Positions 32,996-45,145 of a stretch of 64,000 nucleotides of DNA are shown piece after piece. The notes beneath the pieces were generated by a model that saw nothing but the letters and a program-made list of their open reading frames with translations, was not told the origin of the DNA and did not search any database. The position numbers and the translations under genes are program-made. The stretch is from NCBI GenBank assembly GCA_019057815.1, contig JAHLWR010000015.1:1-64000 (forward strand). Direction: 5' to 3'. This DNA is from Candidatus Heimdallarchaeota archaeon (GTDB taxonomy: Archaea > Asgardarchaeota > Heimdallarchaeia > Heimdallarchaeales > Heimdallarchaeaceae). How positions within the stretch are numbered: position 1 is the first letter of the stretch; each line of letters starts with the position of its first letter.

Positions 32996-34300
32996 ATGAT
33001 TATAATGAATGAAATACTGATAGGTTTTCTCACTGGATTTGCTCCTGGTCTAATCCCGATAGTATTTTGGTTTTACAAACTAATTGCTAAATTTATCAAA
33101 TTTAGACCTTATCGTGATATATGGAAGGATTTTGATTCTAAAAATACAGTTATTTTACTTACAAGTCATGAACAAGGTCATTCACTAAAAATAAGTTTCA
33201 ATGAATATGAAGCTGCACAGCAAATACAAAAGTTACTAAATGTTCCTCTAGAATCTATTCCTTCTATGATTCATACTGATCAAGATCTTATTGATTATTC
33301 AGATAAGAATATAATTGTTTTAGGTTCTGAACATGTAAATGAATTAACGAGATTGTGTATGGAAACTATCTCAGGAATAATGAATTATTCATACACTGTT
33401 GATAACGATTTGATTGTAAACAATCGAGTCTACGAAAGCGAATATAAAAACGATATTCTAGTCAAAGACTATGCCCTTGTAATCAAAATGGATAGTCCCT
33501 TAAACCCAAAACGAAAAATGTTTGTTTTCGCTGGAAATCATGGATTAGGTACGCAAGCAGCTGTCTTAGCTTTAATCAACAAGATTAAAGTTGAAGAAGT
33601 TATTAAGGAAGTTGGAAATTCTAATTTCTATCTAATAGTCGAAAGTTCATTTGCACAACGTTTTTCAAAAAAACCCCTGGAAACTAGAATAGACCACTGC
33701 GTTCTTCTAGGAAGATTAGAAAAAAGTGCTTCAAAATCTATTACAGTTAAAAGAAGTGAAAGAGTTAAGGATTTCTTGTTACATCTGGGTGCTAAAAAAC
33801 AGCTTATTGATCATTTAGAGCTTACTTCAAAAATTGCTCTTTCAATAGGAAGAATTGTTGAAAAACGGGGGAAGAATCTGGATTTAAATGCTATATATTT
33901 TGGTGCAATGTTTCACGATGTTGGAAGAGTAAGAACACAAGAAATAGATCATGGTATTGAGGGGGCTAATTTGATAGAAGAAAATAGAGATGAACTTGTC
34001 CGTCAATACAACTTGATGCCTCATACTTTTATAAAGATAATTGAAGCTATTGAATGTCATATTGTTGGTGGTATTCCAAGTCGATGGATAACGGAAAGTT
34101 CATTAAATCTCCCTGAAAGAGATTTCATACCAAAGTCTATTGAAGCAAAAATTGTATCCATTAGTGATCAATTAACACATAAAAGAGATGTAACACAGAT
34201 GGTTTTCAGGGAGGATCCAACAAGAGACAAAGAAGTTTTTGCAAATCTCTATAACCTTTGTAGAGATATACTACAGCTTCCTTTTGCTTCAACTATCTAG
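32996..34300 (+). CDS. TM-anchored alpha/beta domain fused to HD phosphohydrolase (archaeal HDIG-like)
   Basis: N-terminal TM; IIVLGSEHVN...FAGNHGLGT; H...FHDVGR...HG...H...D. Confidence 0.75.
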   Translation: MIIMNEILIGFLTGFAPGLIPIVFWFYKLIAKFIKFRPYRDIWKDFDSKNTVILLTSHEQGHSLKISFNEYEAAQQIQKLLNVPLESIPSMIHTDQDLIDYSDKNIIVLGSEHVNELTRLCMETISGIMNYSYTVDNDLIVNNRVYESEYKNDILVKDYALVIKMDSPLNPKRKMFVFAGNHGLGTQAAVLALINKIKVEEVIKEVGNSNFYLIVESSFAQRFSKKPLETRIDHCVLLGRLEKSASKSITVKRSERVKDFLLHLGAKKQLIDHLELTSKIALSIGRIVEKRGKNLDLNAIYFGAMFHDVGRVRTQEIDHGIEGANLIEENRDELVRQYNLMPHTFIKIIEAIECHIVGGIPSRWITESSLNLPERDFIPKSIEAKIVSISDQLTHKRDVTQMVFREDPTRDKEVFANLYNLCRDILQLPFASTI

Positions 34301-43303: not shown

Positions 43304-45145
43304 TCAATCATTTTCTGCATCAATCTGCATAATTTCTAAAATGAAATCGTCATTTTCAGTCAATTCCCTCTTCTTATGCTTATATCCTTTGTAAATACGC
43401 ATTGTGATTCCTAGAACTAACCAACAATCAAACAGAACAACAATACCTATGAAAATGGTTTTTGGTGTTTTGAACAATGGGACATTGAAACTATCAGTTG
43501 TATTGCCATCATCCACCTGTTCATCTAGCACAGAAACAGTATATTTAACATCTTGGAGGTTGCAGACATATCCTGAGCCAATAACTTGTATAATAAACTC
43601 TATTTCATTAAAACTGTTAATTAACTCTATATCTCTTTCTATGACAATAAGACCATAATCTTTGATTAATTCTGTGTAAAGTGTATAACCATTAATTTTG
43701 AGTGTGACACTGAAACTGTCGTATTCTATCTCTGATTGTTTTTCTAAGAACAATGAGAAATTAGATTTGAATCCTTTTATAGAGTCAGTATGGTAGATCA
43801 CATCGTAGTATTTTTTGATTAAATTTCCTTGATTGAGTAAACTAATTTGATCTTCTTCAATTAGTAACCTCTCTGCAAATTGCCCATCAAAGTTCTCCAC
43901 TTCATTGATAGTAATAGCTGTAGAGTTATATATGAAAATCGTCCCTTCTCCCAAAGTAACAGCATAAAATCTAATCTTCAAATCTTTTAGGTAATTAGTC
44001 GTGTACAAATCGAATGTAAGTGTCACTTTATCTTGAAGTTGATTATTGGGAGTTATTTCGCCTTCCTCTAAGAGCACTATCCCTTGAAATAACTGATAAC
44101 TTATTCCTGGAAAAACAACTGTTCCTTCACAGCTGTAATCAATTTCTATTTTTAATATCTGCGTATCTTTAATACTAGAAGGTTTAAGCGGAGATAAGTC
44201 TACAAATTCGTCTATACCAGCTAACCAAGAGACTACTTTGAGGTATGAGTCATCTTCAACAATCTCTTCAACTAATTGTCCTTTCAACTCGATATTAGAA
44301 ATATAAACTGTATTGATTGATATACCTATGGCAAATCTGAGTTCTAAGACGTTCTTCCCTTGATAGAGCGGTAATTCAAAATACTCATTGAAACTCTCTC
44401 CAGAATCAAATGACAATGTTTCATAAGAATTCGAATTAACACTTATATCAACAGAACTAACAAAAGCGACAAATTCACTAGTTTCGAAAGATAAACTAAC
44501 ATTTTGAGAATAAGAATCATTATTTGCACAAAATGAAATCGTCTTTATAGTGTAATATGTGAAACCACTCAATTTGCTATCAATTATAATTTCTTCTGTA
44601 GCAAGATCATAATTCTTTTCTACCATTCCTAATGAGATTATAGATAGATTCCTTACAGCTGATTCAGCAAGTATTCTGATCTGACCACTTTCACCATATG
44701 AAGCTTTCCCTGAAATAGAGATAGTTAAATTAAACTCACCATTATAATAATCTGGATATTCAAACGCTTTGCTTACATTTTGTACATTTCCATCTTGATA
44801 AGCTCGCGAAATGTCGAATTTTACTTCAGAACTGTTGAAATCAAAAACTATGGTTAAACCACTCGAATCTGTTTGATCCCCTTCTACAACAAATTTAAGG
44901 TCTAAAGCATTGAACTCACTTAAAATTAGGCTATCTAGAGTAAAATTGAAAGTCTGGTTACCTTCGTTTTCATCATAAAAATAAACAAATTCTTGATCAA
45001 AACTATTAAGATAAGAACTGTTGGGAATAGAAGAGGTAAAAGAAAGAGACTGGTTACATCCTTGAGGTGAAATGGTAATTAGCGCTATGAATCCGATGCA
45101 TAAAATTACATAACGTAAATTAGTGGATGTAACCATGTCTTTCAA
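43304..45145 (-). CDS. Secreted beta-rich surface protein with C-terminal TM anchor
   Basis: Signal-like N-terminus, beta-strand-rich body, TM at ~aa 563-585, short tail. Confidence 0.8.
   Translation of the reverse strand: MKDMVTSTNLRYVILCIGFIALITISPQGCNQSLSFTSSIPNSSYLNSFDQEFVYFYDENEGNQTFNFTLDSLILSEFNALDLKFVVEGDQTDSSGLTIVFDFNSSEVKFDISRAYQDGNVQNVSKAFEYPDYYNGEFNLTISISGKASYGESGQIRILAESAVRNLSIISLGMVEKNYDLATEEIIIDSKLSGFTYYTIKTISFCANNDSYSQNVSLSFETSEFVAFVSSVDISVNSNSYETLSFDSGESFNEYFELPLYQGKNVLELRFAIGISINTVYISNIELKGQLVEEIVEDDSYLKVVSWLAGIDEFVDLSPLKPSSIKDTQILKIEIDYSCEGTVVFPGISYQLFQGIVLLEEGEITPNNQLQDKVTLTFDLYTTNYLKDLKIRFYAVTLGEGTIFIYNSTAITINEVENFDGQFAERLLIEEDQISLLNQGNLIKKYYDVIYHTDSIKGFKSNFSLFLEKQSEIEYDSFSVTLKINGYTLYTELIKDYGLIVIERDIELINSFNEIEFIIQVIGSGYVCNLQDVKYTVSVLDEQVDDGNTTDSFNVPLFKTPKTIFIGIVVLFDCWLVLGITMRIYKGYKHKKRELTENDDFILEIMQIDAEND

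Follow-up and report, generated by a model that had tools for sequence, protein, structure and literature searches.

Seven co-oriented genes, designated G1 to G7, lie side by side in a 64,000-nucleotide stretch (the window) of contig JAHLWR010000015.1 from a Candidatus Heimdallarchaeota archaeon. They are real and chromosomal, and they are central to a larger system, to which the RadA, XPD and Hef paralogues of the window and a 2109-aa Ig-repeat protein also belong. The system is phylum-wide and undescribed: no account of the cluster was found in the searchable literature (subscription journals lie outside its coverage), nor was any described DNA-exchange mechanism for Asgard archaea found there. 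We infer its function from its genes, and on evenly divided confidence we read it as an apparatus of ancestral Asgard origin, passed on vertically, through which cells in contact would exchange or take up chromosomal DNA; it would be coupled to homologous recombination and switched on under one regulon. The grounds seen here are conservation, protein folds, lost catalytic motifs, paralogue status and a shared promoter motif; whether the gene content speaks for a role in DNA transfer is, in our judgement, a toss-up.

The cluster, whose synteny the first-pass annotation of the window proposed to check, is more widespread than was thought and reaches most Asgard groups sampled. The order G1-G7 or G2-G7 is maintained across the Heimdallarchaeaceae (f1; f-numbers denote Asgard family-level groups), with G1 in the cluster in 10 of the 11 family-level genomes in which that flank is covered and displaced in G005. 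Profile-led searches found rearranged related clusters in f2, f3, f5, f6, f7, f9, f11, f13, f14, f15, f17, f19, f20, f22, f23 and f28, and a reduced form in f8; the membership table across families is partly circular, as the profile models were built from those same loci. Recurrent members include the G6 orthologue, 2-TM (two-transmembrane) alpha/beta proteins, one or two M50-fold proteins and surface proteins, joined on the DNA side by RadB-like, RadA-paralogue, Hel308-SWIM, XPD and Hef genes. XPD is in the cluster in most Asgard groups sampled, and a Hef-like gene in f2, f6, f14 and f20. RadA and Ig-protein orthologues come directly after G7 in several relatives, and the Ig gene lies directly upstream of G2 in both complete family genomes. 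This synteny, together with the shared promoter described below, bears out the proposed linkage of the cluster to the radA-Ig and Hef/XPD loci.

Profile counts were made in a sample of 301 Asgard genomes. The G6 core profile, built from 26 sequences that are themselves included in the counts, matched 214 genomes at E<=1e-12; at E<=1e-40, G6 orthologues are carried by about 180 genomes (counted by hand), mostly in single copy. G6 went undetected in f8, in f24 and in most of f27. G5 is present in 62 genomes, confined to Heimdallarchaeia and a few other families. Word-index protein searches returned nothing outside Heimdallarchaeia except generic DUF87 proteins and a few Asgard M50-fold matches. 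Lineage-specific additions to the cluster comprise a FEN1/XPG paralogue (f11, L120:2423-3430), a helix-hairpin-helix membrane protein (f14, L121:4073-5974), a PolB-like gene (f3, L108:10244-12808) and a possible TFB paralogue (f14, L111:8241-9485). One f5 bin, L173 (G249:C266), holds an f14-like G6 cluster besides its own, through either a binning error or transfer.

G6 consists of an alpha/beta N-domain, a HerA/VirB4-fold core, a PadR/MarR-like winged helix (624-712) and a helical tail. Its AlphaFold2 (AF2) model (pLDDT 73) matches DndH-C best (Z 26.4, root-mean-square deviation (rmsd) 3.4, 322 aligned), followed closely by VirB4 (4AG5; Z 25.1, rmsd 3.4, 331 residues) and by HerA (4D2I; Z 21.1). 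Pfam and NCBIfam scans of G1, G2, G3, G5 and G6 gave nothing significant, PDB sequence-profile searches with G6, G5 and G3 gave no match, and the best NCBIfam match of the G6 orthologues, CedD, was reached by 5 of 25 at a best E of 5e-12, far below the cut-off.

The catalytic motifs of this protein are gone. Walker A is missing in all 26 cluster-linked orthologues aligned, as well as in two doubtful f3 proteins, and the arginine-finger motif of the cluster-linked orthologues is lost or degenerate. All 11 unlinked HerA-family controls, which were partly chosen for Walker A, keep both motifs. In a quick IQ-TREE analysis a single branch with an SH-aLRT of 99 sets the dead copies apart, and within the tree Heimdallarchaeia (96), f11 with f28 (98) and f14 (100) group as vertical descent predicts. 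G6 thus appears to have been inactivated once, early in Asgard history, and then retained as a scaffold; a dead VirB4-fold protein kept across a phylum is unusual in itself. The f3 proteins, of 1100 aa, remain doubtful as orthologues and had no match in the G6 core-profile search. Elsewhere in the genome (G000, whose contigs carry C-numbers), C12:177659-180460 (L142) encodes a 933-aa protein with two TM segments, an alpha/beta N-terminal region, an active HerA/VirB4-type ATPase and a weak CedD match. It is conserved in 25 of 28 family genomes, some of which have a second paralogue, and has relatives in f6 and f11 (about 1260 aa in f11).

An anti-virus defence island built from HerA, a nuclease and a Ski2 helicase, or an integrated mobile element, would fit the prominence of DndH-C and the many HerA defence proteins that come next among the fold matches of G6, together with the weak match of G6 to mad8 and the generic match of G7 to HamB. 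This explanation is largely refuted, and we find it barely credible: G6 is mostly single-copy, its tree follows taxonomy, and no cluster relatives were found in viral contigs or plasmids with the queries used. No tRNA or att-like repeats were found around the cluster, no excision joint was found, and the cluster holds no relaxase, coupling protein or integrase. Sequencing depth is flat at 46.5x over the cluster and its flanks (one contig of the probable source run), cluster and flank are at equal depth also in an independent run, and the GC content of the cluster matches that of the genome. The first-pass view of a chromosomal locus, neither plasmid nor virus, therefore holds.

The membrane partner of G6 is predicted to be G2. 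Hydropathy indicates two TM segments, and the AF2 model (pLDDT 77) has two TM helices, a cytoplasmic alpha/beta domain and a helical tail. The best hit of its fold search (Z 7.7, type III chaperone/YbjN-like) is background, with no clear PDB match. In f11, f14, f15, f20 and f28, one or two TM-alpha/beta modules like G2 are fused to the G6 orthologue. Furthermore, the predicted complex of G2 (1-250) with G6 (16-612) reached an ipSAE of 0.65, against 0.00 for the best control; the runs share at least 82% of their contacts, the pLDDT of the partners is 73 or higher, and among test pairs 58 of 80 solved and 2 of 110 mismatched ones reached the mark used. The predicted interface pairs G6 strand 79-88 with G2 strand 173-183 and covers the invariant residues R84 and D178. 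These models support binding of G2 to G6, and G2 may serve as the membrane anchor of G6 in a VirB3/TrsD-like role. The fusions and the complex prediction together uphold the coupling of a membrane module to a VirB4/HerA-like scaffold; of the suggested fold comparisons, G6 did match VirB4, and G2 gave no match to VirB3. The 2-TM proteins of f5 and f6 are equated with G2 by position and topology only, and profile comparison found no link between them and G2.

G3, with about five TM segments by hydropathy, is by motif alignment a dead M50-type membrane peptidase homologue, related at the level of the fold and not as an active member, and apparently not a CedA homologue. Its RFPIK aligns with HExxH, every residue of which is lost. 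The motif is also missing in the f1, f2, f3, f6 and f9 copies and is kept in orthologues of f14, f15 and f22, among them L097, L098 and L111; L097 matches PF02163 at E 4e-4, below the cut-off. The claim of at least two pseudo-enzymes acting as a scaffold is thus sustained for G6, with G3 as the second and not G4 or G5. A second M50-fold family, mostly with HxxxH and no Glu, is in the cluster in many lineages and on contig C40 here. Its gene adjoins one for a conserved all-helical protein (C40:99581-101203, C21:45436-46311), and the pair is in the cluster in G002, G004 and G007. The C21 paralogue of the helical protein has the second-best cluster-promoter score in the genome; TFB identity was considered for this protein and not confirmed, and ESM Atlas searches with the C21 paralogue and with G2 gave no usable match.

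Such proteins could also belong to trans-envelope signalling, in which a contact or damage signal passes from surface sensors, by way of pseudo-proteases and a winged-helix scaffold, to the transcription of recombination genes. The M50 fold is that of regulated intramembrane proteolysis and some lineages retain an intact HExxH, G6 carries a PadR/MarR-like winged helix, and the helical protein accompanies the second M50-fold gene, one paralogue having its high promoter score. In most lineages, however, either the catalytic Glu or the entire motif is missing from both M50-fold families, and no cleavable TM-tethered factor was identified; we consider signalling highly unlikely.

The surface protein G1 has an N-terminal hydrophobic segment and a C-terminal anchor by hydropathy. 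G1-like domains are found N-terminally in larger multi-TM proteins at C12:155041 (about 1040 aa), C16:23290 (about 2500 aa) and C23:13380 (about 1625 aa), the last of which has the cluster promoter at rank 12.

On the DNA-processing side, G4 is RadB-like (TIGR02237, E 7e-15, below the cut-off), with an intact Walker A and a variable, low-complexity N-terminus. G5 is a probable PD-(D/E)xK-type nuclease by motif conservation, with E-x-E in place of E-x-K, and is probably active because E4, D49, E64, E66 and H73 are invariant. It had no significant Pfam or PDB match, and one member gave only a weak NERD match, so its first-pass nuclease label is backed by motif conservation and not by any database or fold match. 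G7 is Hel308-like (E 2e-46, below the cut-off), with a SWIM motif at 530 and motifs I, II and VI intact. Against NF040935 it scores 159 bits and the housekeeping Hel308 on C48 scores 631, both below the cut-off of 1200. A SWIM-like motif is present in 12 of 12 cluster-linked G7 copies and missing from housekeeping Hel308, although the G7 tree does not resolve the two. The 920-aa helicases of f5 were ruled out as G7 orthologues by a different zinc motif. With these results, the remaining first-pass protein labels (G1 anchored, G2 with two TM segments, G3 with about five, G4 RadB-like, G6 of HerA/VirB4 fold, G7 Hel308-like with SWIM) proved correct.

Housekeeping counterparts exist elsewhere in the genome. 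The RadA paralogue of the window scores 201 bits against a TIGR02236 cut-off of 361, compared with 411 for housekeeping RadA. Housekeeping Hel308 lies beside MCM/GINS on C48, HerA-NurA with Mre11-Rad50 is also outside the cluster, and other Hef and XPD copies are located elsewhere; therefore the RadA, Hel308, XPD and Hef copies of the window are extra paralogues. The whole genome contains four RadA-family genes (C26, C43, C11 and the window) plus RadB-like paralogues.

These genes share a promoter. The 47- and 71-bp gaps of the cluster, which had been said to hold promoters, each contain a conserved one, and a third lies upstream of G1 (Table 1). It combines a pyrimidine-rich element immediately ahead of the TATA box with a conserved hexamer further downstream and a leaderless start; the pyrimidine-rich element is present in 80% of training sites and in 9% of comparable TATA genes. 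Training used G1, G2, G5 and the RadA paralogue of relatives, in a leave-one-gene-out scheme, and with RadA left out the RadA paralogue still ranked 6 of 2943. The Hef paralogue, though never in training, ranks 8-56, whereas housekeeping RadA and Hel308 rank below 1700 of 2943. In genera outside the training set the motif scores 12-22 at most cluster genes and 9-11 at two, and the scoring genes include a displaced G1 and an unlinked second G3. Because canonical archaeal B recognition elements (BREs) are purine-rich and the cluster element is pyrimidine-rich, a special transcription factor is plausible.

Several genes beyond the cluster score highly for the same promoter. A Y-family polymerase gene (Dpo4-like, C5:37710-38852) ranks 31 of 2943, which hints at damage induction. 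Two genes for large proteins without Pfam match, C22:20924-23761 (rank 1) and C35:77205-78932 (rank 8), have very strong cluster-type promoters; the first was considered as an ATPase and dismissed as a chance motif with no profile match. TnpB-like copies at C22:28133, C12:124017, C21:21501 and C31:17865 carry the cluster-type motif and the window copy does not, as if transposons exploited the regulon.

The most serious alternative, which we nonetheless think unlikely, is a hub tethered to the membrane that repairs the cell's own DNA or pairs its chromosomes, in which the dead ring and its winged helix hold chromosomes and nothing crosses the membrane. The private helicases and RadA would then mend damaged or replicating chromosomes held there. 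Every active enzyme that can be recognised is a repair factor, some lineages add FEN1-like and PolB-like genes to the cluster, the Dpo4 promoter rank points the same way, no channel or pilin was found, and a dead ATPase suits a tether. A hub of this kind leaves unexplained, however, both the persistent linkage of giant extracellular and G1-like surface proteins and the duplication of a full housekeeping repair set.

VirB4-fold proteins also act in protein secretion, and M50-fold proteins normally handle membrane proteins. The cluster might accordingly be a degenerate platform resembling type IV or type VII secretion systems (T4SS, T7SS) that exports or assembles giant surface proteins, with the recombination genes linked only through a shared stress or developmental regulon. 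Three separate promoters and an order rearranged between families would agree with this. Against it, the winged helix of G6 is of a DNA-binding type, the genes for G6 and the helicase abut in f1, f11 and f28, and DNA and membrane genes are interleaved in single transcription units (G2-G3-G4 and G5-G6-G7). We regard a secretion platform as distinctly unlikely.

In the DNA-exchange apparatus that we favour, G1 and the giant Ig protein would make or select cell contact, and ATP-dead G6 would be anchored to the membrane by G2, where one or two dead M50-fold proteins would serve as a scaffold or gate. G6 would act as a passive ring or tether, gripping DNA by its winged helix. Hel308-SWIM and XPD, the active SF2 helicases, could provide the motor force, or an active paralogue encoded elsewhere could do so, and the membrane-bound product of C12:177659-180460 could supply ATP-driven activity of this kind. 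G5 would trim DNA, and RadB-like G4 may help to load the private RadA.

Several observations weigh against this proposal. With its ATPase dead in all 26 orthologues aligned, G6 is unable to drive import in the way proposed for CedB. The peptidase fold from which the multi-TM proteins derive is not known to form pores, and the seven proteins include no recognisable VirB2/CedA1-like pilin, VirB6/CedA-like channel or ComEC. The membrane proteins, which the first-pass annotation had set beside those of the Ced importer, gave no match to CedA, and G3 is an M50-fold pseudo-peptidase. TrbL and ComEC (PF03772) had no match in the 95% complete genome; as a control, the ComEC profile was matched in 10 bacterial genomes. 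A missing CedA/TedA match does not amount to exclusion, because Ced and Ted homologues are unrecognisable by sequence. No small 2-TM open reading frame (ORF) of at least 70 aa was found in family-level clusters, and small TM ORFs of 99-150 aa occur in the f3, f13, f19 and f23 clusters. Because G2 and G6 look like the two parts of a fused gene and VirB3-VirB4 complexes have been solved, likeness may partly account for the pass of the complex; split-gene halves pass the complex test easily. Unrelated genes, among them TnpB copies and one for an aldehyde dehydrogenase, carry the promoter motif as well. Finally, the active ATPase at C12:177659-180460 was rejected as a co-regulated motor, lacking the cluster promoter in the 13 copies scored.

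A stronger version of the same proposal, which we hold only tentatively, is a categorically new ancestral Asgard mating apparatus. In it, adhesins would join cells, a passive VirB4-derived ring with pseudo-peptidase anchors would conduct or tether chromosomal DNA, SF2 helicases and not the ring would exert the force, and a private recombinase set with its own promoter class would recombine the DNA. If true, programmed, envelope-coupled recombination would have had a prokaryotic forerunner in the lineage leading to eukaryotes. Asgard archaea are the host lineage of eukaryogenesis, and a conserved, co-regulated module of envelope and RadA/helicase genes is a concrete, testable candidate for an Asgard recombination route, with a bearing on how programmed recombination and sex arose. 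Both the promoter motif and the interface predicted between G2 and G6 can be tested biochemically at once, and genetic access to Asgards could benefit from an inducible route of uptake.

Coordinates are collected in Table 1. The seven co-oriented genes and their junctions were as first described, apart from the likely starts of G1 and G2, which are corrected in the table: from G1 to G7, a 47-bp gap, abutting genes, an 11-bp overlap, a 71-bp gap, an 8-bp overlap and a 1-bp gap.

Table 1. Features of the cluster, its promoters and associated genes in the window.
Feature	Position	Strand	Remarks
G1	43304..45145	-	ORF; likely start ATG 45136; surface protein
G2	41850..43256	-	ORF; likely start ATG 43247; 2-TM protein
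G3	41187..41849	-	ORF; about 5 TM; inactive M50-type (zincin) membrane peptidase homologue
G4	40142..41197	-	ORF; RadB-like ATPase
G5	39609..40070	-	ORF; probable restriction-endonuclease-fold nuclease
G6	36461..39616	-	ORF; catalytically dead HerA/VirB4-fold protein
G7	34297..36459	-	ORF; Hel308-family helicase with SWIM zinc finger
G1 promoter, cluster type	45159..45183	-	rank 20/2943 with G1 left out of training
G2-G3-G4 unit promoter, cluster type	43270..43294	-	rank 14/2943 with G2 left out
G5-G6-G7 unit promoter, cluster type	40093..40117	-	rank 45/2943 with G5 left out
Dedicated RadA paralogue	24899..26104	-	profile score, synteny, cluster promoter
Ig-repeat surface protein, 2109 aa	18560..24889	-	C-terminal anchor; synteny
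Hef-like paralogue	60380..62176	-	no recognisable Walker A; cluster promoter
XPD/Rad3 paralogue	58585..60393	-	intact Walker A and DEAH
Two tandem copies of multi-TM protein	45233..47834	+	divergent from G1; membership uncertain, no cluster promoter

The tandem multi-TM pair adjoins G1 in about eight relatives; here, window positions 45133-47834 represent a recent tandem duplication with 84-88% DNA identity, and a third paralogue is on C27. An HD-domain gene (32996-34300) is convergent with G7, overlapping it by 4 bp; it is missing in a related strain (joint 32083-34343) and therefore lies outside the system. An inserted TnpB/IS605-like gene (26367-27629) separates the cluster from the RadA paralogue. 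Among named relatives, a Heimdallarchaeota bin is nearest (95% identity), and protein matches are labelled Heimdallarchaeaceae.

The cluster was compared with several known systems. Like the archaeal HerA-NurA-Mre11-Rad50 operon, it sets a HerA fold beside a nuclease and recombination genes, but G6 lacks catalytic motifs and has a different N-domain, and NurA, Mre11 and Rad50 are absent. With Site-2/M50 peptidases (PF02163) it shares topology and, in some G3 orthologues, the HExxH ... PxxxD motif, whereas G3 itself has no HExxH residue and the second paralogue has HxxxH without Glu. Unlike fusexin-bearing integrated elements (PMC9259645), it is not mobile and has no HAP2 Pfam match, either in the cluster or in the Ig proteins. 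Conjugative T4SS and integrative and conjugative elements differ from it in relaxase, integrase, att sites and mobility, all absent here, where the tree follows taxonomy; compared with type IV secretion more generally, it lacks Walker A in G6, a coupling protein, relaxase, VirB6 and VirB8. As in VirB3-VirB4 (TrwK) and TrsD of monoderm T4SS (PMC12102498), a 2-TM protein is predicted to anchor a VirB4-fold protein, split or fused, although the G2 domain gave no structural match to VirB3 or to the VirB4 N-domain.

The closest parallels are Ced of Sulfolobales and Ted of Thermoproteales, domesticated type IV secretion systems with VirB4-, VirB6- and VirB2-like parts (PMC9905601, PMC11823120); Ted loci pair a domesticated VirB4 with recombination genes (HerA, Rad50) (PMC9905601). 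The Asgard cluster differs in that G6, while sharing the VirB4/HerA fold, has no active ATPase in any aligned orthologue, and in lacking a recognisable CedA/VirB6 channel or CedA1/TedC pilin. Its additional parts are M50-fold pseudo-peptidases, a winged helix, giant surface proteins and private RadA, RadB, Hel308-SWIM, XPD and Hef paralogues. Like Ced and Ted, it is chromosomal and relaxase-free, and it brings together an FtsK/HerA-VirB4-fold protein predicted to be membrane-bound, recombination genes and a regulon that may be inducible; it may work as they do.

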